Source: a virus. Taken from it: 38,806 bases of DNA. Below are positions 6,897 through 36,214 of the stretch, piece by piece; the first letter of the stretch is position 1, and the number at the start of each line of letters is the position of its first letter. The notes under the pieces are model-generated. The model was not told the DNA's origin. It searched no databases and saw only the letters and a program-made list of their open reading frames with translations. The DNA lies in IMG/VR virus record IMGVR_UViG_3300045988_052964, positions 1 to 38,806 of that record; one strand, given 5' to 3'. The translations under genes were made by a program, and so were the position numbers.

Positions 6897-9193
6897 TGTA
6901 TCGGATTATTGGATATAACGAGCCTACCGATAAGAATGGCTTTATCGTGCTTGATCAACGAGTTAATCGCACGGTTAGCGAAGGCAAACTGACGATCAAA
7001 GAAACCGATATTGATGACCTGGAACTCACTGTAAACCGTGATAGTTTGCTGTTTGATAACGTCAGACCAATGCACACGCACGTTGAAGTATACGACGATG
7101 ATAAGCTGTTGTTTCGAGGCCGAGCAATCAAGCCAAAGAAAGAAATGCAATCAAGCGGGAATTTTATTAGAACGTACGTGTTCGAGGATATTGAAGCATA
7201 CCTGCTTGATAGTGTTCAGCGGTTTTATGAAGCTGTTGGATTGAAACCAAAAGAGTTCTTACAATCACTATTAGATGTTCATAACAGCCAAGTGCCACAA
7301 TACAAACAATTCAAGTTGCGCAACTGTAACGTTACTAACAATAAAGATGATGCTTACCGACAAATTGATTATCCCAAAACACGGGATGCAATCAAAGAAA
7401 AGCTAATTAACGAGCTCGGTGGCTATCTAGTAACAGAATACAGGCCAGGCGGGCCAAACATGCTTGATTATGTAACTGATATTGGCAGTGATCATAAAAA
7501 CGATACACCTATTCAATTAGCGGTCAACATGCAATCCGCAAGTCTTACAATTGATCCTACAAAAGTTATAACCAGACTTATACCTTTAGGGAAACAATTG
7601 GAAAGTAACAAGGTTGAAGTTGACGGTGAAAACTCAACAGTAACGACTGGCGGCGGTGCAACTACCGCTATTAATGGTGATTGGACTGAAGCAATTAAGC
7701 ATGCTGCAAAGATGATGAACGTTAACCTTGATCAGAATGGCTTGAGCGCCGTTTTAAGGCGTATTAATCAAGAGTCTGGCGGTAGTGAGACTGTTACAAA
7801 CAACTGGGACAGTAATGCGGCAGCAGGCCATCCATCAACTGGTTTGCTTCAGTATATTCAGCCAACTTTTGACGCTTGGAAGGTACAAGGATATGAAGAT
7901 ATCCACAAAGGCTTTCATCAGCTTTTAGCGTTGTTTAATGACTCTAATTGGCTAGCTGATATCTCACGCGCTGGTGGTTGGGGTCCAACTGGTACACGAC
8001 GAGTTAACGGGCCTGTTAGTGATACCACAACGACAACAACATCAAACAGCTGGGGTTGGCCATTTCCTAGTGTTGGTGAAGGTAGTTTCTCTGGAGGTCA
8101 ATTATTTGGCGTTCACCCCGGCGGTGAATTTAGACCCAATGGTTTTCATGACGGTTTAGATTTTGGATCTGTAGATCATCCGGGTAGCGAAATACACGCT
8201 ATCCATGGCGGTACAGTGGTTTTCAAAGGCTATATGGGCGGCCTTGGTAATTATGTTGTGACACATAGTACTGACGGCTTTAATATCGTATATCAGGAAG
8301 CTTTTAGCAGTGCTAACCAAATTCGAGTAAACATTGGTGATAAAGTCAAGACTGGTGATGTTATTGGTTGGCGAGATACTAGCCACTTACACGTTGGCGT
8401 TACTAAAGCTGACTTTTACGAAGCTGTCAGGAAATCATTCACGAATGATGGGACGTGGTTAGACCCGCAAGCATTGATAAAAAAAGGCGGCGATGGCTCA
8501 CAATCTAAAGATGAAAGTAAAAAAGATGAGATTAGTGACTCAAATGCTGCCAAACCCAAGCTAACAATCACTAGTGTTAATGGTGGGCGTGATTATATTG
8601 ATATACCAGATTTGCAAAAGGAATTCGGTATTATCTGTGGTACAGTTGAGTTCAGTGATGTAACTGATGCTAATGTTCTAATGAGCCAAGCGAAAGCATG
8701 GATAAACGCACAACGAGTACCAGAAAATTGGGAAGTTAGTGCAATCGAACTGAATTTACCTAATTTCAACCATTTCAAAGTTGCTGACCGATATATGTTT
8801 ATCAATCCATACGTTGCACAAACTCAGCTATTACGAGTTGTACAGAAAGAAATTGATCTATTAAGACCGCACAAATCAACGTTAACCATTGGTGATAAAT
8901 CACTAGGATTAACTGATTATCAAGCAGAAACAAACCGGCAATCTCAAGATTTAGAGCGAGTCAAGGTTATTGTTGGCCGTGTAGCTGAGGTTCAAGCAAG
9001 TGGACAATCTAACGTATCAAGTACTACTACAATCATTCAGAACGGAGCAAGCAGTGAAGATGTAACACAGCTCAAGTTTGATATGAAACAGTTGCAAACG
9101 GTTATTAATGACAGAATTCCAGCAGGATATGTATCACAAGCAGATTTCAATGCACTAAAGGCCGAAGTTGATAAGTTGAAAGGAGACGGCTAG
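6896..9193 (+). CDS. Tail-associated lysin (Tal) with lytic transglycosylase and M23 peptidase domains
   Basis: SLT-like motif INQESGGSE...STGLLQYIQPTF. M23 motifs HDGLDFG and SHLHVGV. The C-terminus is coiled-coil. Confidence 0.85.
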   Translation: MYRIIGYNEPTDKNGFIVLDQRVNRTVSEGKLTIKETDIDDLELTVNRDSLLFDNVRPMHTHVEVYDDDKLLFRGRAIKPKKEMQSSGNFIRTYVFEDIEAYLLDSVQRFYEAVGLKPKEFLQSLLDVHNSQVPQYKQFKLRNCNVTNNKDDAYRQIDYPKTRDAIKEKLINELGGYLVTEYRPGGPNMLDYVTDIGSDHKNDTPIQLAVNMQSASLTIDPTKVITRLIPLGKQLESNKVEVDGENSTVTTGGGATTAINGDWTEAIKHAAKMMNVNLDQNGLSAVLRRINQESGGSETVTNNWDSNAAAGHPSTGLLQYIQPTFDAWKVQGYEDIHKGFHQLLALFNDSNWLADISRAGGWGPTGTRRVNGPVSDTTTTTTSNSWGWPFPSVGEGSFSGGQLFGVHPGGEFRPNGFHDGLDFGSVDHPGSEIHAIHGGTVVFKGYMGGLGNYVVTHSTDGFNIVYQEAFSSANQIRVNIGDKVKTGDVIGWRDTSHLHVGVTKADFYEAVRKSFTNDGTWLDPQALIKKGGDGSQSKDESKKDEISDSNAAKPKLTITSVNGGRDYIDIPDLQKEFGIICGTVEFSDVTDANVLMSQAKAWINAQRVPENWEVSAIELNLPNFNHFKVADRYMFINPYVAQTQLLRVVQKEIDLLRPHKSTLTIGDKSLGLTDYQAETNRQSQDLERVKVIVGRVAEVQASGQSNVSSTTTIIQNGASSEDVTQLKFDMKQLQTVINDRIPAGYVSQADFNALKAEVDKLKGDG

Positions 9194-9370
9194 ATGGCTA
9201 CTACTGATGAGATGAAGAACATTGCTGAAACAATTCGTAAGGCCCAATATGGTAAGGATGTTCGGGAAGCTATAGCAAAAGGTTTTGAACTGTTAGCTGC
9301 AAAGCAGGACAAAGTGGATGGCTTCTTGAATTCGTATGGGCTGGATGAAGACACTATAGATGAACAATGA
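9194..9370 (+). CDS. Small tail/baseplate-associated protein (58 aa, absent from the ORF track)
   Basis: RBS AAAGGAGA lies 8 nt upstream of the ATG. Translation begins MATTDEMKNIAETIRKAQYGKDVREAIAKGFE. It fills the gap between Tal and the BppU-like gene. Confidence 0.5.
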   Translation: MATTDEMKNIAETIRKAQYGKDVREAIAKGFELLAAKQDKVDGFLNSYGLDEDTIDEQ

Positions 9371-14085: not shown

Positions 14086-14298
14086 ATGCAAAAGTACACA
14101 ACGCTCAGAGTTTTAAGAGCTGAACGGGATTTGACTCAAGCCAGCCTAGCCCAAGCACTAGGAGTCACGCAAAAAGTGATTTCATCGTGGGAGACGGGCC
14201 GAAGCAATCCCAGACCCGTGATGATGCAAAAGGTAGAAGACTTTTTCAACGTGCCAAAGGAAGAGATTTTTCTAAAAGCCTTTGGGAAGAGCAAATAG
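14086..14298 (+). CDS. XRE/Cro-type HTH transcriptional regulator
   Basis: LRAERDLTQASLAQALGVTQKVISSWETG is a classical HTH_3 pattern. Confidence 0.8.
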   Translation: MQKYTTLRVLRAERDLTQASLAQALGVTQKVISSWETGRSNPRPVMMQKVEDFFNVPKEEIFLKAFGKSK

Positions 14299-14309
14299 GA
14301 GGAACTGAA

Positions 14310-15098
14310 ATGAGTGAACTAAAAATATTAGGAACTGAAAAAATTGGTAGTTTTGAATTTACTGGAATTGAAGGCGGCTTTGGTGAAAATAAAAGAGCCA
14401 TGCTAGTTAAAGATATAGCTTTGATCCATGACAGACCAGTTAAAGCAATTAACCAAGCGATAGAAAGACAACTTAACAGATTTAAAAATGGGATAGATAT
14501 CTTAGATTTGAAGGCTGAAAATTTTGCGGTCACACTGAGTGACCTCGGATTTAATCAAGGGCAGATTAACGCATCCAAACATATCTACCTACTCTCAGAG
14601 CGTGGATATGCCAAGTTACTCAAAATTCTTGAAGATGATAAAGCTTGGGAAATCTATGATGAGTTGGTGGATAACTACTTTAACATGAGATACGTCATTC
14701 AAAAGCAAGACTCATATATGATCAACGACCCAATTCAACGCGCTAAACGTTGGATTGAAGAGCAGCAGGAACACCAAGCCAAATTAAATATACTGCAGCC
14801 TAAGGCAATCAAATATGATCGCTACTTAAGCAACAAAGGACTGATTACAACTACTCAGATCGCCAAAGAATACGGGATGAGCGGGGTCAAATTATATCAG
14901 TTCTTACACGATAAAGGGATCATCTATAAGCGAGGTAGCAAATGGTTTGTTTATCAAAAATTTGCAAATAGCCACTTAGTAGGATATGAGATTTTCGCAC
15001 CAAATGATAATATCGTTAAACATACGCTCAAATGGACTACTAAAGGCGAACAATTTGTTAGAGAGTTACTTGAGGCTAATGACATAATGCCAGCTTAA
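14310..15098 (+). CDS. Antirepressor-type protein (ORF6N/KilA-N-like N-terminus plus KilAC C-terminus)
   Basis: ATG 14310 with RBS AGGAGG. The C-terminus LITTTQIAKEYGMSGVKLYQFLHDKGIIYKRG is KilAC-like. The track start 14187 overlaps the HTH gene and is rejected. Confidence 0.7.
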   Translation: MSELKILGTEKIGSFEFTGIEGGFGENKRAMLVKDIALIHDRPVKAINQAIERQLNRFKNGIDILDLKAENFAVTLSDLGFNQGQINASKHIYLLSERGYAKLLKILEDDKAWEIYDELVDNYFNMRYVIQKQDSYMINDPIQRAKRWIEEQQEHQAKLNILQPKAIKYDRYLSNKGLITTTQIAKEYGMSGVKLYQFLHDKGIIYKRGSKWFVYQKFANSHLVGYEIFAPNDNIVKHTLKWTTKGEQFVRELLEANDIMPA

Positions 15099-15112: not shown

Positions 15113-15784
15113 ATGACAAAGAAAAATAAAAAAGAAAACGAAAATGTTTATGTTGCAAAGAAACCATTTTACAAGAGAGTTTGGTTCTGGATCTTAGCTA
15201 TTTTGGCTATTATAGTTATTGGAGGAGCTGTAGGTGGTGGATCTGATCCAGATACATCGCCAACTTCAGAGAACAACTCAAGTTCAAGCTCAAGCAATAA
15301 GGCTAGCACTCAAAACGATGCATTTAGAAAAGCATTTGATAATATAACTGTCGGTGATTTGATGAACCACGGCGATGGTGGAACAACCCTTAGTGATGTC
15401 GAGAAAGTTTTAGGCAAGCCTTCCACAACATCAACAACAACTATACAGGGAATAGAAACTAAAAATTACATCTGGAGTAAAGGCGGTGTGTCCATTACCG
15501 TTGTATTTAATGGCGATCAGGCTGTTTCTAAGCATATAACAGGTTTCAAATTCTCACGTGCTCCTAAATTCAATCTAGACGCTTATAACAGTCTTGAAGA
15601 TGGTTCTTCGTATGAAGATGTTGTAAGTAAGTATGGTGAGCCTGATGGTTTAAGTGAAATGATTATTGGTGGTAATAAGAATGTTACTGCAACATGGGCA
15701 ACCGGCACTAAAGGTGGTACAATTACATTAGAATTTACAAATGACAGTTTAGTTTCTAAAGCGCAATCTGGTTTAGAAAACTAA
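15113..15784 (+). CDS. Membrane-anchored extracytoplasmic protein (DUF3862/BLIP-like repeats)
   Basis: N-terminal TM segment VWFWILAILAIIVIGGAV, a Ser-rich linker, then two similar domains (..LSDVEKVLGKPS.. and ..YEDVVSKYGEPD..). Confidence 0.6.
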   Translation: MTKKNKKENENVYVAKKPFYKRVWFWILAILAIIVIGGAVGGGSDPDTSPTSENNSSSSSSNKASTQNDAFRKAFDNITVGDLMNHGDGGTTLSDVEKVLGKPSTTSTTTIQGIETKNYIWSKGGVSITVVFNGDQAVSKHITGFKFSRAPKFNLDAYNSLEDGSSYEDVVSKYGEPDGLSEMIIGGNKNVTATWATGTKGGTITLEFTNDSLVSKAQSGLEN

Positions 15785-16179: not shown

Positions 16180-16896
16180 ATGAAAGAACTTATCAAAATT
16201 ACAAAAGATGAACAAGGAATTTCAGTTGTTAGTGGTAGAGACTTACACGAATTTTTAGGAATTAACACAGAATATAAGAAATGGTTTAACCGTATGACCG
16301 AGTATGGTTTCACAGAAAATGCAGATTTTGTAAGGGTGACCCAAAAATGTCACACCCCTGGTGGAATTCAAAACATCACAGATCACGCAATGATTTTGGA
16401 CATGGCAAAAGAAATATCTATGATCCAACGAACAAATAAAGGCAAACAAGCACGTCAATATTTTATCGAAGTAGAAAAGGAATTCAGAAAGCAATGTCAA
16501 CTGCCTCAAACTCCAGAAGAAAAACTCGAATTAACGATGCAAGTAACAACACGGATCAATAAGCGACTTGGGAAGGTTGAAGAAAAGATTGACGAAATTC
16601 AAAACAAATCAGAAATTGACTCAGATCAGCGATATAAGCTTTGGGTTGCTAGAAACAAGAAAGCAGTCAAGACACTAGGCGGCAAAGATAGCAATGCTTA
16701 TAAGAACAAGATTTTATCAAGAAGAGTATTTAGAGTTTTAGAACGTGAATTCAAAGAAGCATTTGTGATTTCACGTTACGAAGATCTTAAGAAAGAAAAT
16801 TTTGATAAAGCGATAGATTTTATTGATAATTGGTATCCGCCATGTGGTTTAAACCGAGAGATTGAAGCTATAAACTCACAAGAAAATTTATTCTAA
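16180..16896 (+). CDS. Antirepressor-type protein (AntA N-terminus plus ORF6C-like C-terminus)
   Basis: VVSGRDLHEFLGINTEYKKWFNRMTEYGFTENADF is AntA-like. The C-terminus is helical and ORF6C-like. Confidence 0.65.
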   Translation: MKELIKITKDEQGISVVSGRDLHEFLGINTEYKKWFNRMTEYGFTENADFVRVTQKCHTPGGIQNITDHAMILDMAKEISMIQRTNKGKQARQYFIEVEKEFRKQCQLPQTPEEKLELTMQVTTRINKRLGKVEEKIDEIQNKSEIDSDQRYKLWVARNKKAVKTLGGKDSNAYKNKILSRRVFRVLEREFKEAFVISRYEDLKKENFDKAIDFIDNWYPPCGLNREIEAINSQENLF

Positions 16897-17489: not shown

Positions 17490-17951
17490 ATGAATGAATT
17501 ACAAAAATTTAATTTTGAAGGTAACGATTTAGCAGTTAAGGAAATCGAAGGGCAAGTTTATTTCAATGCAGAACAAGCCGCTATTGGTTTGGGTTTGTTT
17601 GAAAAGAAGAATGGGAAAGTCTATGTACGCTGGAGAAACGTGTCTAAATATCTTTCGCAAGAAGTTGCGAAAGGCGATTTTATCACTGAACCACAATTTT
17701 ACAAGTTTGCTATTAAGGCAAACAATCCAGTTGCAGAAAAATTCCAAGATTGGGTCACGGATGAAGTATTACCTGCAATTCGTAAACATGGAGCTTACAT
17801 GACAGACGAGAAAGCTTTTGACGTTGTTCACAACGCTAGTGGATTAGCAGACTTACTACAACAAGCAGCCGACCAATTGAAGGCTAAAGATATTCAGATT
17901 GCAGAAAGGAAGCCTAAAGCATTGTTCACTGATAGTGTTGCCGTTTTATAA
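17490..17951 (+). CDS. Bro-N domain antirepressor-type protein truncated at the start of its KilAC domain
   Basis: Bro-N motifs (FNAEQAAIGLG, FQDWVTDEVLPAIRKHGAYM). The protein ends 8 codons after KPKALFTDSVA. Confidence 0.7.
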   Translation: MNELQKFNFEGNDLAVKEIEGQVYFNAEQAAIGLGLFEKKNGKVYVRWRNVSKYLSQEVAKGDFITEPQFYKFAIKANNPVAEKFQDWVTDEVLPAIRKHGAYMTDEKAFDVVHNASGLADLLQQAADQLKAKDIQIAERKPKALFTDSVAVL

Positions 17952-17969: not shown

Positions 17970-18698
17970 ATGATGAATGAATTAATTAAAGTAACAGTTA
18001 AGGACAACCAACAATTAGTTAGTGCTAGAGACTTACACAAAGGGTTAGAACTTAAAAAGCAATTCACGGATTGGGTAAAACAAAATTTCGATGTATTTAT
18101 TGAGAATGAAGATTTTACGTTTACCCCTAGAAGTGTAAACATGCCAAACGGCGGGACAAAAGCGGTTAAAGATTACGCAATCACGGTAAGCATGGCGAAA
18201 GAATTAGCTATGATGAGTAGGACTAAAAAAGGAAAAGAGTATAGAAAATACTTTTTAAAATTAGAACAAGCTTGGAATAGTCCTGAAATGGTTATGAAAA
18301 GAGCTTTAGAAATTGCTAACAAGAAAGTAGAACAATTGAAACTTGAAAATCAAGAAATGAAGCCTAAAGCATTATTTGCGGATAGTGTTGCAGCAAGCCA
18401 TACAACAATTTTAATTGGCGAACTAGCTAAAATCTTACGTGGCAATGGAATTGATATTGGCGCTAATAGATTGTTCCGATGGATGCGAGACCAAGGCTAT
18501 CTTATCAGTAGAAAAGGGACGGACTACAATACGCCAACTCAGAAAAGTATGGATTTAGGGTTATTTAAGATTAAAGAGTCGACCGTTATACACAGTGATG
18601 ACTCAACATCTATCCGTAAGACAACTAAAGTTACCGGCAAAGGGCAACAGTATTTTATCAACAAGTTCATGAAGATGAAGGGGGAAGAAACATGCTAG
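17970..18698 (+). CDS. Antirepressor-type protein (AntA N-terminus plus full KilAC C-terminus)
   Basis: LVSARDLHKGLELKKQFTDWVKQNF is AntA-like. KPKALFADSVAASHTTILIGELAKIL... is KilAC-like. Confidence 0.7.
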   Translation: MMNELIKVTVKDNQQLVSARDLHKGLELKKQFTDWVKQNFDVFIENEDFTFTPRSVNMPNGGTKAVKDYAITVSMAKELAMMSRTKKGKEYRKYFLKLEQAWNSPEMVMKRALEIANKKVEQLKLENQEMKPKALFADSVAASHTTILIGELAKILRGNGIDIGANRLFRWMRDQGYLISRKGTDYNTPTQKSMDLGLFKIKESTVIHSDDSTSIRKTTKVTGKGQQYFINKFMKMKGEETC

Positions 18699-26905: not shown

Positions 26906-27682
26906 GTGAATGAATTACAAATTTTTAACTTTAAAGGAAGCGAAGTAAGAACAGTAACTATTAACAACGAACCTTATTTTGTTGGTAAGGACGTTGCAGA
27001 TATTCTTGGGTATCAAAACCCCAGCCGTGATATTAACCGACATGTTGATCAAGAAGATCGTCAAAACTACCAAAACGGTAGTTTAGCATCAAACCGAGGA
27101 ATGACAGTAATTAACGAGTCTGGATTATATTCCTTAATCATTGGCAGTAAGTTGCCAGATGCAAAGAAATTCAAACGCTGGGTAACAAGTGAGGTATTAC
27201 CATCCATCCGTAAACATGGTACCTATATGACACCGGACAAGATCAACGAAATTTTGTCGGACCCAGACACAATCATTAAATTGGCTACACAATTGAAAGT
27301 TGAACGCGAAGGCCGGCTAGTAGCTGAACAACGAGTCAACGAACTGACACCTAAAGCCAGTTACTATGACCTTGTTCTACAAAACAAAACGTTGGTCACA
27401 ATTACACAGATTGCCAAGGATTATGGTATGAGCGGTCAAGAGTTAAACCGTAAGCTACATGAGCTAGGTGTTATCTATAGACAAGGCAACGTTTGGCTGC
27501 TATATAGTAAGTATCAACGAACAGGTTGGACCCAATCAGAAACGTTTATGGCTCCTAAACCAGACGGTACACAGAAGGCTGTGATGCATACCAAATGGAC
27601 ACAGAAAGGACGCCTAGGCTTATATGAGTTGCTTAAACAAAATGGGATCCTGCCATTAATCGAGACAGAAGATGAAGACTAA
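26906..27682 (+). CDS. Antirepressor-type protein (Bro-N plus KilAC)
   Basis: GTG start with RBS AGGAGGA. FVGKDVADILGY..FKRWVTSEVLPSIRKHGTYM is Bro-N-like. ITQIAKDYGMSGQELNRKLHELGVIYRQG is KilAC-like. Confidence 0.75.
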   Translation: MNELQIFNFKGSEVRTVTINNEPYFVGKDVADILGYQNPSRDINRHVDQEDRQNYQNGSLASNRGMTVINESGLYSLIIGSKLPDAKKFKRWVTSEVLPSIRKHGTYMTPDKINEILSDPDTIIKLATQLKVEREGRLVAEQRVNELTPKASYYDLVLQNKTLVTITQIAKDYGMSGQELNRKLHELGVIYRQGNVWLLYSKYQRTGWTQSETFMAPKPDGTQKAVMHTKWTQKGRLGLYELLKQNGILPLIETEDED

Positions 27683-28133: not shown

Positions 28134-28497
28134 AGAGCTTAAAGAATACAAAGAAGCTAAAGATTTACCAATTGCAGAATTAGCAAGAAGAATTGAAGCT
28201 GATGATACAACGGTTGGCAGATGGTTAAAAGGTATGGCTACACCTAGCGACTATTCTTTACTCAAAGTGCGAAGATTTTTAGATAGTGTCAAAGGCTGGG
28301 AAGGCTCGAAAACACTAGAACCATTTAAAGATAAAACAACTAGAGAGCACGAACGAGCAGAGAAAGATATTAACTATCTAAAACAACGTATTAAGGCTTT
28401 AAACGATATTGAAGAGTTGGATCCACTGGTGGCCGAATTAAACACCATTACACAGCTTGGAAAACTTATGCTTGATGCTTACGACACTACATTTTAG
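28111..28497 (+). CDS. Putative HTH protein
   Basis: LPIAELARRIEADDTTVGRWLKG is an HTH-like pattern. Its 3' end is duplicated at 28829-28954. Confidence 0.55.
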   Translation: MELMEEIKELKEYKEAKDLPIAELARRIEADDTTVGRWLKGMATPSDYSLLKVRRFLDSVKGWEGSKTLEPFKDKTTREHERAEKDINYLKQRIKALNDIEELDPLVAELNTITQLGKLMLDAYDTTF

Positions 28498-28521
28498 ACG
28501 CCAAATTAGGAGGACAAACAA

Positions 28522-28806
28522 ATGAATTCAGAAACAGATATCAATTGCAACACCGATTTTGCTGAAGTTGAGTCAGAAGAAGAAAAAATTAAGTGTAAAA
28601 AAGTGGCGGTTTTTCTAGCCAATGGTACAGAAATGGTAACTAACAACGTTTTGAGTGTTAGTGAATACACTAACGAACACGGCGGGCTTGCACTTGAACT
28701 TTGTGGCAAAAGCAAAACAGGGAAAACCAAAAAGATGGTTTTCAATCTAACAAGCAGTAACGTCATTGGATATTCAATAGAAGATCAAGAAACAAGCAAA
28801 TCTTAA
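28522..28806 (+). CDS. Acidic hypothetical protein (94 aa), a moron-like insert
   Basis: RBS AGGAGGA. Flanked by the 28372-28497 and 28829-28954 direct repeats. Confidence 0.55.
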   Translation: MNSETDINCNTDFAEVESEEEKIKCKKVAVFLANGTEMVTNNVLSVSEYTNEHGGLALELCGKSKTGKTKKMVFNLTSSNVIGYSIEDQETSKS

Positions 28807-28828
28807 GGATTGACCTTAACAAGTCGTA

Positions 28829-28954
28829 AACTATCTAAAACAACGTATTAGCGCTTTAAACGATATTGAAGATTTAGGCACATTAGTAACTGAATTAAAT
28901 ATTATCGCACAGCTTGGAAGCCTTGCGCGTGATGCTCACAAGGCGCCGTTCTAA
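28829..28954 (+). pseudogene. Start-less duplicate of the 3' end of gene 28111-28497
   Basis: Translates to NYLKQRISALNDIEDLGTLVTELNIIAQLGSLARDAHKAPF, against NYLKQRIKALNDIEELDPLVAELNTITQLGKLMLDAYDTTF in the intact gene. An in-frame stop lies at 28817 and there is no start codon. Confidence 0.7.
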
Positions 28955-28979
28955 AAGTATCAACAAAGGAGAAATTAAC

Positions 28980-29240
28980 ATGGATTATCAAAAAAAAGTA
29001 GACATGAAAGAAGTTAAAAAAATACAGAAACAAACAACTGAGATAGCTAAAATCTTGAAAAAAGAGGGCTATGAAGCGGGAGTAATAGCGTTAGGTAGAG
29101 GTACAGGGGTCGCGACTAATGTTTTTGGCAGCAGAAAAGATGTGCTATTTACTGTATACACTATTTTGGAAAATTTGAAAGAAGAAGACAAACTAATACT
29201 TTTATCTATGATCTCAGGTATCAAATTAGGAGATAAATAA
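28980..29240 (+). CDS. Hypothetical protein (86 aa)
   Basis: ATG 28980 with RBS AAAGGAGA. The track start 28914 lies inside the pseudogene fragment. Confidence 0.55.
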   Translation: MDYQKKVDMKEVKKIQKQTTEIAKILKKEGYEAGVIALGRGTGVATNVFGSRKDVLFTVYTILENLKEEDKLILLSMISGIKLGDK

Positions 29241-29730
29241 TTAAAATTTTGACCTTAGTTTCAGAGGAATGTTAAATCAATTGACCTTAGCACGTCATTA
29301 AACTGCTAAATACTGACGTGGTTATTTGAACGGTATACATTCACAAAAAACCGTAAATCAGGATCTCGCAAATAACGACACAGTACAGGCTTAGCATCTG
29401 TCGAAGGGTGCTGAGTCATAGGCAGTAGAGATGTAAGGAAGCTATAAAACAAAAATTTATTAAAAAGGTAGGTGTAATTTCCCTTTCTCATTAATTCATG
29501 CAGTAGCAGCCGAGCAAATTTATTGCCGAAACTAGACTATCCTTAGTTGCAGACTGCAAATTGTGAGCAAAAAAAATTATGAAAGAAGGTTCAAGCCTTC
29601 GTATATTCTTCGTATCTTGTTTGCAACTAATCTGCCTTGTATCTGCAAAATTTGAGCCAGTCACACGTTTTTGAGAGCGTGGCAAGGTATTTATACCGGT
29701 ATAATATTAAAACGATAAGGAGAGGTGAAA

Positions 29731-30225
29731 ATGGAGCTTATAACAGCAATTCACAACTTAGAACAATGGAGACCAATTATGGAGTGGGATGATCACATAA
29801 AGGAGCTGCCAGATGAGCTAAAAGAGAGTTGGAATAGAATACTACAAGCCAGAGGTATAGGGTTGATGGATAGGTTAGGACTAACACAAGCCGAAATCAG
29901 AGAAATATCCGAGTTGATTAACAATGACACACTACCAACTGAAGCATTCCGAAGATATGGGATCAAGTATGCAAAGCGCTTAGCCAAGAGATTGGGTATG
30001 GAAGATGTGATTGATAATTATTACAAGCGGGTTAAGTCGTATTACTTGATAAATGTTGTTACTAAAGAAAAGTATCAGTTTCATAGGTTACAAGATGCGG
30101 CTGAGTTTCTAGGAAGAAAAGACTATAGGTCGCTGCCGCAATACATTGATAGAGCTTTGCTCATTCCAAGAACAAGCTACAAGATTTATAGATACAGAAC
30201 ATTCAAGAAAAGAAAGAGGTTTTAG
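29731..30225 (+). CDS. Hypothetical DNA-binding candidate (NUMOD1/HTH-like C-terminus)
   Basis: ATG 29731 lies 8 nt after AAGGAG; the track uses GTG 29725. The C-terminus YYLINVVTKEKYQFHRLQDAAEFLGRKDYRSLPQYI resembles a NUMOD1-type HTH. Confidence 0.5.
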   Translation: MELITAIHNLEQWRPIMEWDDHIKELPDELKESWNRILQARGIGLMDRLGLTQAEIREISELINNDTLPTEAFRRYGIKYAKRLAKRLGMEDVIDNYYKRVKSYYLINVVTKEKYQFHRLQDAAEFLGRKDYRSLPQYIDRALLIPRTSYKIYRYRTFKKRKRF

Positions 30226-30226
30226 C

Positions 30227-30418
30227 ATGAAAAAGATCATGGCGTTAATTTTTACAATAATTTCAGGAGTAAGCATGTTTGGAGTCATTACAGGATATAT
30301 ACTTGATGCACTTGGCTTATGTGGAGCAGGCTTCTATCTAATAGGAATAGGTGAGGTTGTATGTGTTGCATCTGCAGCGGCGGTTGTCACAATTGGTATT
30401 TTTAGCTATTTAGAGTAA
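30227..30418 (+). CDS. Small hydrophobic Gly/Ala-rich membrane protein (63 aa, 2 TM)
   Basis: Sequence MKKIMALIFTIISGVSMFGVITGYILDALGLCGAGFYLIGIGEVVCVASAAAVVTIGIF. Confidence 0.5.
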   Translation: MKKIMALIFTIISGVSMFGVITGYILDALGLCGAGFYLIGIGEVVCVASAAAVVTIGIFSYLE

Positions 30419-30451
30419 TAAAAACGATTGTATCATAAGGAGTGCAGGCTT

Positions 30452-30892
30452 GTGGAAGATATGCTACTAGATTTACCTCAGGTTAATTACGATGGAACAG
30501 CTGATAACGTTGTAAAGTTTCTAACAAACAGAAGCTACTACCCTAGGATGTATGATATATACATGCAAGCTAATCCAGAGAAATTAAAGAGCCCAAGTTT
30601 AAGTGGTATGCCTGGAGGTAGTGTTGGAAACAGCAACGAAAATAAAATGATCAAATATTTGTATGCAAAGGCGATTGTAGATGGAGTTAGACAAACGATA
30701 GACAAGGGTTCGCATGAGTTAAAAGTAGTGTTTAGTAACATAACCGGAGAGATAAGTGCGGTTGAAGCGATGCGAATGTTACACTATGAAAAAACAAGAT
30801 ACTACTTAATTAGAAAACAGGCTTTAAATGAATTTGCCGATATTTTAGAAGTTCAAAATTTGCATTGCCCAGATCTACATGCTTATATTTGA
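30452..30892 (+). CDS. ArpU-family late transcriptional regulator
   Basis: KSPSLSGMPGGS motif and a C-terminal HTH/sigma region-4-like segment. GTG 30452 lies 9 nt after AAGGAG; the track start is TTG 30428. Confidence 0.6.
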   Translation: MEDMLLDLPQVNYDGTADNVVKFLTNRSYYPRMYDIYMQANPEKLKSPSLSGMPGGSVGNSNENKMIKYLYAKAIVDGVRQTIDKGSHELKVVFSNITGEISAVEAMRMLHYEKTRYYLIRKQALNEFADILEVQNLHCPDLHAYI

Positions 30893-31034
30893 ATATTGCA
30901 TAAAAGCGGAGACCAAAGGGATTTGTTGAAAACGTACATTGAAAGCAAAAAGGATGCAGCCAAACGAAAAAGGTGGTATTATATTATTGTCGAAAGACAT
31001 AGTTAATCATTCATTTCAAAATTAAATAGTTTGC

Positions 31035-31063
31035 TTTTCAAAGACAGCGAGATGAGTTATAAT
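31035..31063 (+). promoter_or_regulatory. Promoter (TTTTCA, 17-bp spacer, TATAAT); candidate late promoter downstream of the ArpU-family gene
   Basis: -10 at 31058-31063. Confidence 0.45.
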
Positions 31064-31069
31064 AAACTT

Positions 31070-31357
31070 GTCTCTTATGTGGTGTGTAGGAGCACCACAC
31101 TCTGACATTAAATAACTTTAGCGTGATATTCTTTGGTTTTTCATTACTGAGAATAAGCCTCCTTTAGAATGATATTTGGAGTGTGGTTCCAGTTCGATCC
31201 TGGAACACTACTTTGTGTGTATGACACTATCCATACCGTGACCACAACGTTATGTGGATATAATTGTAATTCCTATTGTTATTCATGTTGGCTTTTCAAC
31301 TATCATTTTTCATTATATTCCTTTACAGAGAACAGTTTTAATGACTGTTCTTTTTTT
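31070..31357 (+). ncRNA. Candidate structured leader or ncRNA of about 290 nt
   Basis: No credible ORF or RBS. Hairpin 31078-31099. T-arm-like hairpin TTCCAG-TTCGATC-CTGGAA at 31187-31205. Hairpin CCACA-ACGTTA-TGTGG. Ends in a terminator. Confidence 0.3.
31327..31357 (+). terminator. Intrinsic terminator 22 nt upstream of the Panacea gene start
   Basis: Stem GAACAGT/ACTGTTC (extendable to 10 bp) with a 7-nt loop and a T7 run. Confidence 0.7.
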
Positions 31358-31378
31358 ATACAATTTAGGAGGTTGTTT

Positions 31379-31888
31379 ATGCAAAAAATTGAATTGCAAA
31401 GCCCTATAGCTGTGGCTAATTTTATAATTGAAGTTGCTAAGAAAGAAGGAAATCCAGTTACAAATTTGAAGCTTCAGAAAGTTTTATTTTTTCTACAGGG
31501 ATATTGTTTGAATGAGTACAATAGGATATTATTTGATGGAAAATTTGCTAAGTGGCAATATGGCCCTATTGAAGAAGAAATATATCAGATATTTAAACCT
31601 CAGGGATCCATGCCTATTGATTTTCTAAGTACACAAGGAAAAATCGAAAATGGGATAATAAAGTTGTATCACGAAAAAATTGATTTACCTCAAGAATACA
31701 TTGAGGAATTGAAAAGCGTGGTGATAAAGATAAATCAAAAAGCACCATGGGAATTGTTTGAATTAACGCATAAACATAGTAGCTGGTATTCTTATAAAGA
31801 CGATATAAGCAGGGGAATTGCAATTGATTATGCAAACGATGAGATAGAAAAATGCTTCAAAGATAATTTTAGCCAGCTTAATAGCTGA
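31379..31888 (+). CDS. Panacea (DUF4065, SocA/GepA-like) antitoxin-domain protein with no adjacent toxin
   Basis: RBS AGGAGG lies 8 nt upstream. VANFIIEVAKKEGNPVTNLKLQKVLFFLQGYCL...FAKWQYGPIEEEIYQIFK matches the DUF4065 core pattern. Confidence 0.7.
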   Translation: MQKIELQSPIAVANFIIEVAKKEGNPVTNLKLQKVLFFLQGYCLNEYNRILFDGKFAKWQYGPIEEEIYQIFKPQGSMPIDFLSTQGKIENGIIKLYHEKIDLPQEYIEELKSVVIKINQKAPWELFELTHKHSSWYSYKDDISRGIAIDYANDEIEKCFKDNFSQLNS

Positions 31889-31910
31889 CTTTTTATTTTG
31901 CAAAGAAGGG

Positions 31911-32813
31911 GTGATACCAATTTTACAACTAGATGAAAGGAAAGTTCGAAAAGGAAAACCTATTGGACTCCCATATGTTGGAAGCAAGAAAAAAATATCA
32001 AAAAAAATCGTGGAGATAATCAAACAAAACTTCGGAACTGATATACCAGTTTACGATGTTTTCGGCGGTGGTGGTGCAATTACTGCAGAACTGCTATTGA
32101 ATAATATGCAGGCCCACTACAATGACTTAGACAGCGATGTTACAAGTATGTTTACCAGAGTTATCTCACAAGATAGAGAATGGATCAAAACATTGGCTGT
32201 TTCACGTGATGAGTTTCTAACTATCCGTGATAAAAAAGGAAAAACAGTTGATGACAATTTGAAGTTACTGGTCAATTCTTTTGCGAATAATTCAAAAAAT
32301 TACTTGTACTGCAAAGAACAGTCCAGGGCAAAATACAATCTCGCAATTGAAATTATAAAAAAACATGATGTGTTTAGTGGCTACAAGCAAACGGGAACCT
32401 ATCGAAACGCTAAACAATCATGGCGACCGGAGCAGTTAGAACGACTACAACAATTAGAACAACTACAACAATTAGAACAACTACAACAGTTGAAGGAAGC
32501 GCGAGACCCAGAGATAACTAATTATGACTATACAGCATTTTCAAATGTTGAGAATGCTATTTTTTATCTGGACCCACCATACCAAAACACAATGAATGGA
32601 TATAAATTTGAGTTCAATCATTCGTTATTTTATGACTGGTGTGTTGAGATGGCAAAAAAAAATATTGTAATTATTTCCAGCTACAGCATTCCAGATCCGC
32701 GTTTTAAGGTTGTTTGGGAGTTTAAAACGGCGCGTGGTTCGTTTGCTGGAGGCGTAAATAAGAAGTATGAGCAACTTTACATGGTTTCGGAAGGATTAAA
32801 TCAACTAAGCTAA
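31911..32813 (+). CDS. Orphan N6-adenine DNA methyltransferase (Dam/D12 class)
   Basis: PYVGSKKKI, FGGGGAIT (motif I) and LDPPYQNT (motif IV). The GTG start is uncertain because the RBS directly abuts it. Confidence 0.75.
   Translation: MIPILQLDERKVRKGKPIGLPYVGSKKKISKKIVEIIKQNFGTDIPVYDVFGGGGAITAELLLNNMQAHYNDLDSDVTSMFTRVISQDREWIKTLAVSRDEFLTIRDKKGKTVDDNLKLLVNSFANNSKNYLYCKEQSRAKYNLAIEIIKKHDVFSGYKQTGTYRNAKQSWRPEQLERLQQLEQLQQLEQLQQLKEARDPEITNYDYTAFSNVENAIFYLDPPYQNTMNGYKFEFNHSLFYDWCVEMAKKNIVIISSYSIPDPRFKVVWEFKTARGSFAGGVNKKYEQLYMVSEGLNQLS
32433..32496 (+). repeat. In-frame 18-bp tandem repeat (about 3.5 units of CTACAACAATTAGAACAA) encoding (LQQLEQ)n
   Basis: Two units are identical (32445-32462 and 32463-32480) and are flanked by degenerate units. 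Confidence 0.85.
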
Positions 32814-32821
32814 GGCAAAAG

Positions 32822-33313
32822 GTGGTGAGTATTGTGGTAAGAGCGCTTTACAAAGAATGGTTAACAGAGGAAAAGTTAACATTGTTGAAAGGCTGGAAGA
32901 GAAATGGTTTAACTGATGAGCAAATTGCTCATAATATGGGAATTAATGTTCGCACGTTGTGGAGATGGAAAGCTGAGCATAAAGAGATGAAGGAGGCACT
33001 AAAAGTAGGGAAAGAAGTGGCCAACTTCATTGTTGAAAATAAGCTGTTTCAAAAGGCTATCGAAGGTAATACTACTGCTATGGTTTTTTGGCTAAAGAAC
33101 AATTGGCGCGATAAATACAACGATAGTGAGTTGTCGCCAGAAGAACGTAAGCTTGCTATTGCACGTATGAAGAAATTAGAAGTTGAAACTAAGAATGTTC
33201 AATTACGTAATAAGTCACTTGAAGAAAATGGCGCTGATATTGAAGAAGCACTCAATAGAGTTATGGATAAGCTTAGCAGTGAAAGCGACAAAGAAAATAA
33301 TAATAATGATTGA
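32822..33313 (+). CDS. terS: Terminase small subunit
   Basis: HTH LTDEQIAHNMGINVRTLWRWKAEH. Lies upstream of terL. The start could be GTG 32822, 32825 or 32834. Confidence 0.7.
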   Translation: MVSIVVRALYKEWLTEEKLTLLKGWKRNGLTDEQIAHNMGINVRTLWRWKAEHKEMKEALKVGKEVANFIVENKLFQKAIEGNTTAMVFWLKNNWRDKYNDSELSPEERKLAIARMKKLEVETKNVQLRNKSLEENGADIEEALNRVMDKLSSESDKENNNND

Positions 33314-33342: not shown

Positions 33343-33527
33343 GCAAACAAAAAGCCCTAGCGGTGTTGGCGACACCCTAGAGCTGGTAACCATAGAAAGG
33401 ATATGATTACATGGATACAATCAAGTGAGTGTATCAAGATGCGCAATTGGAAAAGCAAAAACACACAAGGGCTATATTTGGAAATATATTTAATAAATGG
33501 TTAGTACTCTTGATGAGTGCTTTTTTT
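33343..33527 (+). ncRNA. Candidate leader or small RNA of about 185 nt between terS and terL (may instead encode a 33-aa peptide at 33403-33504)
   Basis: Hairpin GGTGT-TGGCG-ACACC flanked by CCCTAG direct repeats. Ends in a terminator-like hairpin. Confidence 0.25.
33503..33527 (+). terminator. Terminator-like hairpin 22 nt upstream of the terL start
   Basis: 7-bp stem AGTACTC/GAGTGCT (one G-U pair) with a 5-nt loop and a T7 run. Confidence 0.55.
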
Positions 33528-33548
33528 ATTAGCAGAGAGGTGAACGCA

Positions 33549-34787
33549 ATGGCAATAGATAATTTGTTAACTGCAAAGCAGCAAAAAGCCTTACAATCCT
33601 ATTTACATGATGATTGGAGAGTCCTGATCCTATCTGGTGCAGTTCGTGCTGGCAAAACATATATTTCTGATTGGATATTTTTGCTTGAGTTGCGAAGGAC
33701 TGCACGACTAGCTAAAGTCCAAAACGATCCGCACCCTGTTGTTATCCTTGCTGGATATAGTTCTAATTCAATCTACACGAATGTTATCGTTTCAATTGAA
33801 AATGAGTTTGGCGTTGAACTAAAGCCAGATAGGCATGGGCATTACCATTTGTTTGGTGTTGATATAGTGCCTGCTTATACTGGAAACAAGCGAGGAATGA
33901 GCGCCATTCGCGGTGCAACTGCATACTCCGCCTACATTGATGAAGGATCATTAGCCGATCAATCTGTGTTCCAAGAAATACTACAGCGTTGTTCAGTTGA
34001 AGACTCGCGAATTATTGTGACTACTAACCCTGGGAGCCCGGTTCACTACTTGAAAACGGATTACATTGACAAGGAAGACGACCCTGAGGCTAGGATCAAA
34101 GTTTTTAACTTTACGATTGATGATAATACGTTCCTTAGCCCTGAATATGTAAAAGCTTTAAAGGCACAAACGCCTTCGGGAATGTTTACGGACAGAGCTA
34201 TCTATGGCCTTTGGGTATCTGGGGAAGGGCTAGTATATCGTGACTTTGATAAAAATAGAATGATGATCGATAAACTACCACCTAACCGCTCATATAAATA
34301 TTATTGTGGCGTCGACTGGGGCTTTGCTGAAGGACACGATACATCAATTACTGTATGGGCTGATGATGAACAAGGCAACACTTATTTAGTTGAAGAACAT
34401 ACCGCAAACCGTAAGTACATTGATTACTGGATTGAGGTAGCTAAAGGTATTCAGAAGAGGTATGGATACAACGTTACCTTTTGGTCAGACCCCGCAAGAA
34501 TTGATTATGTATCTCAGTTTGTTACTAATGGTATACAAGCTCGGAACGCAAAGAAAGATATTTTGGCCGGGATTGAGTCAGTTGCAGAGCTGATGGCCAC
34601 TAAGCATTTCTTTGTGTTGAAGAGTGCTCCTGTTAAGTTTCTTGATGAAATTTATCAATATGTTTGGGATAGTGACAAGGGAGTGCCGATTAAGAAGAAG
34701 GATCACGTATGCGACTCAATGAGATATGGAATATTTAACGAGCATCTAAACAATGACGCTCAATTTATTAATTCAGTTTATATTTAG
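33549..34787 (+). CDS. terL: Terminase large subunit (PBSX/Terminase_3-like)
   Basis: Walker A SGAVRAGKTY. ATG 33549 with RBS AGAGAGGTG. The track start 33429 runs through the terminator and is disfavoured. Confidence 0.85.
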   Translation: MAIDNLLTAKQQKALQSYLHDDWRVLILSGAVRAGKTYISDWIFLLELRRTARLAKVQNDPHPVVILAGYSSNSIYTNVIVSIENEFGVELKPDRHGHYHLFGVDIVPAYTGNKRGMSAIRGATAYSAYIDEGSLADQSVFQEILQRCSVEDSRIIVTTNPGSPVHYLKTDYIDKEDDPEARIKVFNFTIDDNTFLSPEYVKALKAQTPSGMFTDRAIYGLWVSGEGLVYRDFDKNRMMIDKLPPNRSYKYYCGVDWGFAEGHDTSITVWADDEQGNTYLVEEHTANRKYIDYWIEVAKGIQKRYGYNVTFWSDPARIDYVSQFVTNGIQARNAKKDILAGIESVAELMATKHFFVLKSAPVKFLDEIYQYVWDSDKGVPIKKKDHVCDSMRYGIFNEHLNNDAQFINSVYI

Positions 34788-34798
34788 GAGGTGGTAGC

Positions 34799-36214
34799 GT
34801 GGCAGACAGTGTAAAGATTGCTGGCAGTGCTTATATATCCAAGGAAGGCCTGTATCTTTATCCAAATGAAGAACTAACAGGCGAAGACATTTTAACGTTT
34901 ATTAACTATAACAGAGGTATCACAACGTATGGAGAGAACTACCGTTACTATACAGGTGAACATTCTATTTTAAAGAAGAAGTTTGATCCTAACAGCTTTA
35001 GACCAGATAACAGAGTGGTCAGTAATTGGGCTAACTATGTTGTGGATACATATATCGGCTATTTCATGGGGACACCAGTTAAGATACAGTTGGAAGATGA
35101 TAACAAGAACAAGTTATTACAGGATTGGCTGAAGGTTAACACGTTTACAGACAAATTATCAGAAGTAGCCAAACAAGTGGCAATCTATGGTTTGTCTTAT
35201 ATGTTGGCTTATCAAGATGAAGATAGCAATACTTGCGTTGCAGTAGTGCCGCCGGATGAAGGCTTTATTATCTATGATACAAGTATCAAGCGTAAACCTA
35301 TTGCGTTTGTTAGATACGCTTATTTTAATTCTGAATTAGTCGGGGAAGTCTATACTGACAGCAAGATTTATAGTATTGGCAGAGATGGAGTACTTGAAGA
35401 AACAGGAAATATTGTGCCATTTAAAGAAGTCCCAGCGGTAGAGTTCTATGCGAACGAAGAACGTTTATCTTTAGTTGGCAAGATCAGAACCTTAGTTGAC
35501 ACGTACGATAATGCAATCTCACAGAAAGCTAACGAGCTTGAATATTTCGATCAGTCTTTTCTTCTAATGCTGGGTATTAATTTGCCGAAGGATCCTAAAA
35601 CAGGCAAGCCAATCCTTGATTTTAATGGTGGCAAGCGTGTGTTTAATGATCCATCGCCAGAAGCAGCCAATGCGAAGTTTGAGTTCTTATCTAAACCGGA
35701 TAGCGATAACATGCAAGAAAACATGCTTAACCGTTTGGTTAATGATATCTTTCAAACAGCGATGGTAGCTAATCTAAACGATGAGGCGTTTAGTGGCAAT
35801 TCTAGCGGCGTGGCTATTCGATATAAATTATTGAGTATGCAGAACCAAGCGGCACTAGAAGAACGTAAATTCACGATAGCTTTAACTAATTTCTTAGGTA
35901 ACATCGCAAGCCTAGGCAAGATTATCGGCAGTGTTTCATCTGATGAAGTCAAGACTGGATTATCGTTCACATTCAAGCGTAACATACCGGTAAACGATGC
36001 AGACGAGGCAAATACAGCTAAAACACTCGAGGGCGTCGTGTCTAAGGAAACTCAGCTTAAAGTGTTATCTATTGTCGATGATCCCAAAGCTGAGATTGAA
36101 AAGATCGATCAAGAGAAAGAAAACTTGATCAAACAATCATTACAAAACTCGATCAATGCCGCTGATATGTTCAAAGGTGGTGTAGATGATGATACCGAAG
36201 AACAAGCAGAATGA
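34799..36214 (+). CDS. Portal protein (SPP1 gp6-like)
   Basis: 471 aa, follows terL. GTG start with RBS AGGAGGTGG. Confidence 0.8.
   Translation: MADSVKIAGSAYISKEGLYLYPNEELTGEDILTFINYNRGITTYGENYRYYTGEHSILKKKFDPNSFRPDNRVVSNWANYVVDTYIGYFMGTPVKIQLEDDNKNKLLQDWLKVNTFTDKLSEVAKQVAIYGLSYMLAYQDEDSNTCVAVVPPDEGFIIYDTSIKRKPIAFVRYAYFNSELVGEVYTDSKIYSIGRDGVLEETGNIVPFKEVPAVEFYANEERLSLVGKIRTLVDTYDNAISQKANELEYFDQSFLLMLGINLPKDPKTGKPILDFNGGKRVFNDPSPEAANAKFEFLSKPDSDNMQENMLNRLVNDIFQTAMVANLNDEAFSGNSSGVAIRYKLLSMQNQAALEERKFTIALTNFLGNIASLGKIIGSVSSDEVKTGLSFTFKRNIPVNDADEANTAKTLEGVVSKETQLKVLSIVDDPKAEIEKIDQEKENLIKQSLQNSINAADMFKGGVDDDTEEQAE

Follow-up and report, generated by a model that had tools for sequence, protein, structure and literature searches.

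The window, i.e., the complete 38,806-bp metagenomic phage contig IMGVR_UViG_3300045988_052964, carries at the head of its late block a Panacea-family gene (31379–31888, plus strand) encoding a 169-residue PanA protein, the antitoxin component of PanA–PanT (PanAT) toxin–antitoxin (TA) modules. This gene is a true orphan: its open reading frame (ORF) alone, without the promoter and toxin found with its toxin-linked relatives, is inserted precisely between a conserved leader and a DNA methyltransferase gene, it is under purifying selection, and orphan copies in related phages have exchanged their domain core with toxin-linked alleles. We put at about one half the probability that the protein is a trans-acting antitoxin mimic, or decoy, against PanAT systems resident in the phage's host, which appears to be Ligilactobacillus salivarius.

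An orphan Panacea gene inserted alone into the late block

A hidden Markov model (HMM) search matched the 169-residue protein over the whole PF13274 SocA_Panacea (DUF4065) model (positions 1–113 of 113; 59.5 bits against a cutoff of 25.7, E = 7e-16), bearing out the domain assignment that an earlier note had made from the sequence, and phrog_1281 was matched with E = 3e-34. The ORF starts with ATG, six nucleotides (nt) downstream of an AGGAGG ribosome-binding site (RBS) at 31367–31372, and encodes at residues 58–64 (31550–31570, plus strand) the signature KWQYGPI, i.e., the Panacea “GPV” motif W-x-Y-G-P-[VI]. In a 27-sequence family alignment, W59 and G62 are invariant and P63 is nearly so; the window protein has GPI and most relatives have GPV, a motif described as critical for neutralization (PMC8832971). 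The confident AlphaFold2 model of the protein, computed with 27 homologues as input (pLDDT 94.8, pTM 0.91), had no Foldseek match in the PDB at E ≤ 0.001, and a sequence-profile search of the PDB found no solved Panacea structure; in BFVD, the model matched uncharacterized phage proteins with TM-scores of about 0.6 and one Panacea-named protein with E = 0.017. Two weak links of the Panacea fold to DarG came from independent searches, one with the PADLOC DarG HMM (E = 1.4e-3, model positions 175–259 of 329), and the other as the best Foldseek match in the PDB, chain B of the M. tuberculosis DarTG complex 7yk3 (E = 0.02, probability 0.96, TM-score 0.43). The window protein is a standalone Panacea protein with no extra domain. 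Four other family members (P0027, P0032, P0033 and P0035; 255–279 residues) have an unrelated C-terminal extension ending in WEVVDAKLNVSK and may be fused PanA variants.

The earlier note had seen no toxin-like ORF flanking the gene; with the partners that adjoin PanA relatives as queries, no PanT homologue was found anywhere in the 38.8 kb (best tblastn E = 0.06). Nor does the gene form a two-gene unit, in the sense of an adjacent partner at ≤100 nt outside a longer operon, as it lies within the late operon and its neighbour, the methylase, occurs without PanA in close relatives. Two upstream reading frames were considered and rejected, namely a hydrophobic 51-residue ORF at 31254–31409 as a small leader toxin and an in-frame upstream extension of PanA from 31169; relatives have stops or frameshifts within both and do not share the start codon of either. 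The description of the upstream leader as non-coding is thus upheld, since its small ORFs are not conserved in frame.

This conserved leader of the late block (31007–31357, plus strand) shows 86% mean identity across six phages, including two without the Panacea gene, and ends in an intrinsic-terminator-like hairpin (stem 31327–31353) followed by a T-run. The two phages lacking the gene delimit the insertion. L047, whose methylase is 98% identical, aligns to 28431–31355 and 31889–33306 of the window at 92.6% nt identity and misses exactly the segment between, while L021 has the same gap with flanks 84% identical to the window; in both, the leader terminator hairpin is directly followed by the methylase RBS. 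The missing segment is a single-gene cassette comprising an RBS and the orphan PanA ORF (31358–31888, plus strand), bounded by an imperfect direct repeat of T-run and RBS (about 31350–31372 and 31889–31911; copies CTTTTTTTATACAATTTAGGAGG and CTTTTTATTTTGCAAAGAAGGGG). We further collected 79 IMG/VR loci encoding this methylase (51–98% amino acid (aa) identity), 72 of them with at least 600 nt of upstream sequence, and searched all their ORFs with the Panacea HMM, which readily recovers every known copy; none of the 79 has a Panacea ORF. Methylase homologues also stand alone in the streptococcal prophage Javan501, at the same position between ArpU and terminase genes, in Leuconostoc phiLN12 and in lactococcal phages. 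Conversely, the slot of L118 and L120 holds a toxin-linked PanA and no methylase.

Because PanA is missing from L047, L021 and all 79 loci, and the methylase from the slot of L118 and L120, the adjacency of the two genes is best explained by a single-gene insertion. By these alignments, leader and methylase are backbone, with the conserved order ArpU–leader–methylase–TerS (terminase small subunit), and the Panacea ORF with its RBS has entered an accessory-gene hotspot. These findings contradict the earlier proposal that PanA and methylase make up a two-gene anti-defence cassette, and equally the alternative in which PanA controls the upstream RNA or the methylase as its partner, given that both are intact in phages without Panacea. 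A related possibility is that the two genes are a functional pair, with the methylase as a toxin-like cargo that PanA restrains or times. They are only 22–23 nt apart in four backbones (the window, L121, L004 and L013), the called ORFs overlap in L013, and Panacea domains swap partners freely (PMC8832971). Set against the solitary methylases above, we nevertheless judge such a pairing highly improbable; the overlap in L013 is a start-calling artefact, the Shine-Dalgarno (SD) sequence and a conserved ATT lying downstream of it, and a D12 methylase is absent from the PanT tables of Kurata et al.

Descent from toxin-linked antitoxins and exchange of the domain core

PanA relatives were taken from a protein database and metagenome assemblies, as a single-protein scan of IMG/VR with PanA and a near-identity DNA search of the region against GenBank phages gave no match. 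Homologues at 38–93% identity are nearly all from Ligilactobacillus and Lactobacillus, and nearly all relatives in Ligilactobacillus, Lactobacillus and Streptococcus elements precede one family of PanT with a coiled coil and three transmembrane (TM) segments. Cluster P0021 (L008–L012), the commonest one in L. salivarius and recorded on 200 contigs, is 54% aa identical to the window PanA and adjoins a MobL relaxase gene on a plasmid or integrative and conjugative element (ICE) that also bears PemK and Fic toxins; its partner starts 1 nt past the PanA stop and has 291–293 residues, with a coiled-coil region and C-terminal TM segments. P0020 lies in the early region of phage L015 with a 242-residue partner, and the Panacea gene of streptococcal prophages 315.4 and P9, which lies between lysin and virulence genes, is overlapped by its partner, a DUF334 or 269-residue protein. 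The partners of P0021, P0020 and the 315.4 and P9 copies are all mutually homologous. Among GTDB species representatives, the same PanT family is directly downstream in 10 of the 12 closest PanA relatives (found in L. hayakitensis, L. saerimneri, L. ruminis, Lactobacillus species, Coprovivens, Coprosoma and Alkalicoccobacillus), and the Panacea genes of Listeria, Staphylococcus, Pseudomonas and E. coli phages are each directly followed by a partner gene.

Two of the relatives occupy the very slot of the window gene. L118 and L120 read ArpU, PanA, a three-TM PanT of 229 or 232 residues and terminase, i.e., a complete pair, and their PanA proteins are 73% (L118) and 80% (L120; 87.7% at the nt level) identical to that of the window; a prophage PanA, P0009, is likewise 80% aa identical. 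Alongside them are sister orphans in which PanA is followed by the methylase with no PanT, namely L121 (89% identical), L004–L007 (80%) and L013/L014 (63%). The orphans are thus homologues of the antitoxin of host-resident TA systems (P0021, P0009), carried by phages without the toxin.

Comparison of upstream regions shows what has been lost. The toxin-linked PanA genes of L118 (3940–4000), L120 (3930–4000), L015 (3950–4000) and L008 (4940–5000) have in common an extended −10 element, TGATATAAT, with a GAAAGGAG RBS downstream of it, and a TGTCAA-N10-TTGACA palindrome, degenerate in L120 and L015, precedes or overlaps this element; the combination, which has the appearance typical of an autoregulated TA operon, is likely the autoregulatory operator of this PanAT family. 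Neither the element nor the palindrome is found in the orphans of the window, L121, L004 and L013, and directly upstream of the window PanA stands the backbone terminator hairpin instead of a promoter of its own. Homology between orphan and toxin-linked genes starts at the RBS/ATG (window 31371–31379) and stops at 31867, near codon 163, as illustrated by L120, whose similarity to the window PanA is confined to 31379–31867. The last six or so codons are replaced in the orphans (CFKDNF... in clusters P0001–P0008 and P0012, the window protein being identical to P0001). The restriction of homology to the ORF argues that the ORF alone was grafted into the late transcript, without its control region or toxin. 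The ratio of nonsynonymous to synonymous substitution rates (dN/dS) is 0.16 between the window and L004, 0.28 between the window and L013, and 0.21 between L004 and L013, with dS of 0.6–1.2. The gene is therefore under purifying selection and is not decaying, with a constraint similar to that on the methylase (dN/dS 0.09–0.23).

A codon-window comparison further reveals mosaic orphans. Over codons 16–120, the L013 orphan is 96–100% nt identical to the plasmid/ICE PanA of L008, whereas outside this core the two are 44–87% identical, with the lowest value (44%) at codons 136–150; codons 1–15 and 121–165 of L013 are phage-type, 80–98% identical to the window. Similarly, the L004 orphan and the toxin-linked PanA of L120 share 96–100% nt identity across codons 61–120. 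The window allele is shared with L121. The exchanged segment spans the GPV motif and the family's most variable part in the 27-sequence alignment (aa 76–120), and these natural allele swaps probably mark the specificity-setting part of PanA. As judged from these mosaics, orphan and toxin-linked PanA appear interchangeable over the domain core, which argues that the orphans keep antitoxin function.

These results bear on the possibility that the orphan is a leftover of a phage PanAT module after toxin loss and of no present benefit. In keeping with it, complete modules occupy the same slot in related phages, and closely related phages dispense with the gene altogether. However, dN/dS of 0.16–0.28 over dS of 0.4–1.2 indicates long-term constraint, at least four diverged backbones and nine protein clusters (P0001–P0008 and P0012) retain an intact ORF with its strong RBS, promoter and toxin have been removed precisely with no decaying remnants, and the cores are new acquisitions, made repeatedly, from toxin-linked alleles. 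We consider a functionless relic improbable.

A putative decoy against resident PanAT systems

In the reading that we favour at roughly even odds, a phage would have captured PanA from a PanA–PanT module, keeping the ORF only, and placed it behind the terminator of the late leader as the first gene ahead of methylase and terminase. During lytic growth, PanA would be made from the phage's own transcript, late in infection and via or past the 31327–31353 terminator, and would bind the coiled-coil, three-TM PanT toxins of PanAT modules on L. salivarius plasmids, ICEs or prophages. With PanT held inactive, an infection-triggered membrane-toxin response, such as abortive infection or superinfection exclusion, would fail to stop the phage. 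The methylase would act separately, by adenine methylation of the phage DNA, protecting it from restriction. The neutralization of a host toxin put forward in the earlier note is accordingly the part of its proposal that stays plausible, and it is strengthened by descent from PanA–PanT pairs together with allele exchange. Standalone Panacea proteins are known to neutralize membrane PanTs by direct binding (PMC8832971, PMC10440598), and antitoxins carried by phages have precedents in DarG-like enzymes directed against DarTG (Johannesman et al. 2025, PMC11825919; Patel & Seed 2024, PMC11481870), in T4 Dmd against RnlA/LsoA and in pseudo-ToxI against ToxIN.

Several points weigh against this reading. 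A role in phage defence is not known for any PanAT of this family. The nearest toxin-linked relative of the window allele in our data is only 80% aa identical, and in view of this lack of a near-identical counterpart, cross-neutralization by the window allele is an assumption. A strong terminator lies 9 nt upstream of the PanA RBS and bears on the level and timing of expression, and the core exchange could simply reflect the opportunity for homologous recombination, without selection for specificity. About half of all Panacea proteins are found outside TA-like loci (PMC8832971), and, according to one proposal, the domain acts as a sensor and not in every case as a neutralizer (PMC10440598).

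A more specific form of the decoy reading, which we advance only tentatively, is that orphan PanA is a swappable antitoxin decoy whose variable core (about codons 16–120) is repeatedly replaced, through recombination, by that of a PanAT antitoxin resident on host plasmids, ICEs or prophages, in an allele-matching arms race with membrane-toxin PanAT modules of abortive infection. The pattern of core exchange is as expected if phages track the resident PanAT alleles. If true, PanA would be the first anti-defence protein known to be built on Panacea, and phage defence by this PanAT family would have its first evidence.

PanA might instead serve the phage's own programme, either as a SocA-like proteolytic adaptor or a sensor that acts on a protein of host or phage (in lysis timing, replication or competitor exclusion, for example) or as lysogenic “anti-addiction” immunity to incoming PanT. 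SocA is a ClpXP adaptor, according to work cited in PMC8832971, and the sensor proposal mentioned above would fit as well; L. salivarius genomes harbour relatives of the phage as prophages, membrane PanTs are similar to holin-like effectors, and the streptococcal and Listeria prophage pairs adjoin lysis genes. On the other hand, the window protein scores 90.1 bits against the SocA equivalog NF047745, below its membership cutoff of 190, and has no extra domain. The promoter needed for expression in a lysogen is lacking, an integrase did not turn up in the window ORFs that were scanned, and PanT is the ligand indicated by the exchange of cores with toxin-linked alleles. We hold such a role to be unlikely, though less so than a relic. 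The SocA–SocB type VI system of Caulobacter itself shares the Panacea domain with the window, yet differs in that the window PanA falls short of the SocA cutoff, has no SocB-like partner and offers nothing pointing to adaptor function.

Returning to the decoy, its resemblance to known PanA–PanT modules (Kurata et al. 2022, PMC8832971; Ernits et al. 2023, PMC10440598) is close: the window PanA has the full-length PF13274 domain, the GP[VI] signature and the standalone form, and its 73–80% relatives are antitoxin-first pairs with a coiled-coil toxin bearing C-terminal TM segments, an architecture validated for the Helicobacter-type PanT (PMC8832971, PMC10440598). Unlike those modules, it lacks a toxin within 38.8 kb as well as an autoregulated promoter and palindrome, it heads a late operon, and about six codons at its end are replaced. 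With the phage antitoxin mimics (DarG-like enzymes, Dmd and pseudo-ToxI), it shares carriage by a phage of the antitoxin half of a host-resident TA system, a patchy distribution among close phages and, as predicted for PanA, expression from phage transcription; it differs from them in belonging to the Panacea family, in its presumed membrane-toxin target, in the exchange of orphan cores with host-resident antitoxin genes, and in being known here from sequence alone.

The Panacea domain, phage PanAT modules, orphan phage methylases and the use of orphan antitoxins by phages as counter-defence are already known. In the literature searched, whose coverage does not extend to all journals, we found no report of Panacea as a phage anti-defence factor, nor of a promoter-less PanA heading a late operon with cores exchanged with host PanAT. 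To our knowledge, Panacea is the most promiscuous antitoxin domain known. The locus makes the function of solitary Panacea proteins directly testable, as this one is traceable by ancestry to complete modules of that very phage slot and its likely targets can be named, namely the 229–293-residue three-TM PanT proteins of L. salivarius plasmids, ICEs and prophages. If the decoy reading is true, Panacea would join the short list of antitoxin families used by phages for counter-defence, and membrane-toxin PanAT modules would act as phage defence in lactobacilli, which would matter for the phage resistance of probiotic and gut strains.

Late-block genes, leader and the neighbouring methylase

The window is a phage contig whose long ORFs are all on the plus strand. 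Its host is, from sequence evidence, taken to be L. salivarius because several close PanA homologues are named so and because the salivarius-1 RNA (RF03030) is the only Rfam match at gathering threshold; this RNA is full-length at 29634–29690 (70.2 bits, E = 1.7e-13), just 5′ of an ORF at 29725–30225. The accessory slot holding PanA is flanked upstream by a gene for an ArpU-family late (packaging/lysis) transcriptional activator (30428–30892, plus strand; phrog_248, E = 3.8e-22; TIGR01637 phage_arpU, 43.6 bits against a cutoff of 43.1), separated from the Panacea ORF by 486 nt of non-coding sequence, and downstream by TerS (32822–33313, plus strand; phrog_309, E = 3.9e-41). Profile matches identify TerL, the large terminase subunit, at 33429–34787 and the portal at 34799–36214, both on the plus strand. 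ArpU, RinA and LtrC family proteins switch on the late packaging/lysis operons of Gram-positive phages, acting upstream of terS (PMC3753634), which places the Panacea and methylase genes at the head of the late block, where the earlier note had located them.

The leader folds more stably than shuffled sequence (z-score −3.67), with several hairpins, and could be an antitermination leader, an activator-binding region or a packaging site. One hairpin, GGTTCCAGTTCGATCCTGGAAC at 31186–31206, resembles a tRNA T-arm and carries a compensatory change from CCAG/CTGG to CCGG/CCGG; L047 shows compensatory changes in the leader terminator as well. Despite the T-arm-like hairpin, ARAGORN found no tRNA, and Rfam at gathering thresholds gave no family for the leader, a permissive scan yielding only a chance miRNA match (E = 0.33). 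A sigma-70-like promoter at 31035–31063 was rejected as a conserved feature, as its TATAAT results from 5 nt inserted into the loop of a hairpin, an insertion that is common only to the window and L121 and is absent from L047, L021, L004 and L013.

The gene 22 nt downstream of the Panacea ORF (31911–32813, plus strand) encodes a 300-residue protein matching PF02086 MethyltransfD12 (53 bits against a cutoff of 22), phrog_56 and PADLOC MTase_II (379.6 bits). FGGGG (aa 51–55, 32061–32075) precedes DPPY (aa 221–224, 32571–32582), which is the alpha-class order, and no restriction endonuclease turned up among the ORFs scanned, a scan that left out some small ORFs; the protein is thus, by its motifs, predicted to be an orphan alpha-class D12 N6-adenine DNA methyltransferase encoded by a backbone gene; the earlier note, too, had proposed an orphan N6-adenine methyltransferase. 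Its further description as Dam-like stands for the D12 class only, since the protein scores far below the cutoff of the Dam subfamily TIGR00571 (36.9 against 114.85 bits) and its studied relatives are not assigned GATC. A PDB sequence search found no match at E ≤ 0.01. The methylase is about 60–63% aa identical to those of 239 GenBank phages of Lactococcus, Streptococcus, Leuconostoc and Weissella, including ASCC191, a phage named as carrying a member of the M.Phi15I / M.Phi145II / M.Phi93II group (Murphy et al. 2014, PMC4190342). That group, from lactococcal 936 phages, consists of alpha-class N6-adenine methylases whose targets, by tentative assignment, are CC(6mA)G or CY(6mA)G and not GATC (PMC4190342). 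In the window, observed-to-expected ratios are 0.77 for GATC, 0.89 for CTAG and 1.08 for CCAG, giving no strong avoidance signal for the methylase target. The window gene has in common with the lactococcal methylases about 60% identity, the FxGxG-then-DPPY order and the lack of a partner endonuclease; it differs from them in lying at the late/packaging head rather than in the replication region, in having an 18-nt repeat insert and in falling outside the Dam subfamily. By analogy with these relatives, it is most likely an ordinary orphan phage methylase that protects phage DNA from restriction, and this side of the finding is routine.

To judge from sequence conservation, the probable start of the methylase is a non-canonical ATT at 31920, located 8 nt past the SD sequence GAAGGGG (31905–31911). 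The GTG at 31911 abuts the SD sequence and is unconserved, and in L047, L021, L004 and L013 no canonical start fits the 33 conserved N-terminal residues, including the PYVGSK motif; gene callers therefore shorten the protein (267 residues in L004) or over-extend it (312 residues in L013). Alpha-class methylases have their target-recognition region between the S-adenosylmethionine (AdoMet)-binding and catalytic motifs. Within this interval, between FGGGG and DPPY, the window gene contains an 18-nt tandem repeat (32436–32488, plus strand; Tandem Repeats Finder, 2.9 copies, 97% matches, score 99) encoding LEQLQQ units, and the L004 homologue has a repeat of equal length with substitutions.

Elsewhere in the window, five anti-repressor (Ant)-like paralogues are encoded at 14187–15098, 16180–16896, 17490–17951, 17970–18698 and 26906–27682, and a Sie-like lipoprotein gene lies at 15113–15784; the phage may have become virulent in descent from a temperate lineage. 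The phage of L004–L007 has an extra N6_N4 methylase gene after RusA, which the window lacks, and its gene for the large terminase subunit is interrupted (7121–9287) by an HNH endonuclease gene, an insert that may be an intron or homing element.

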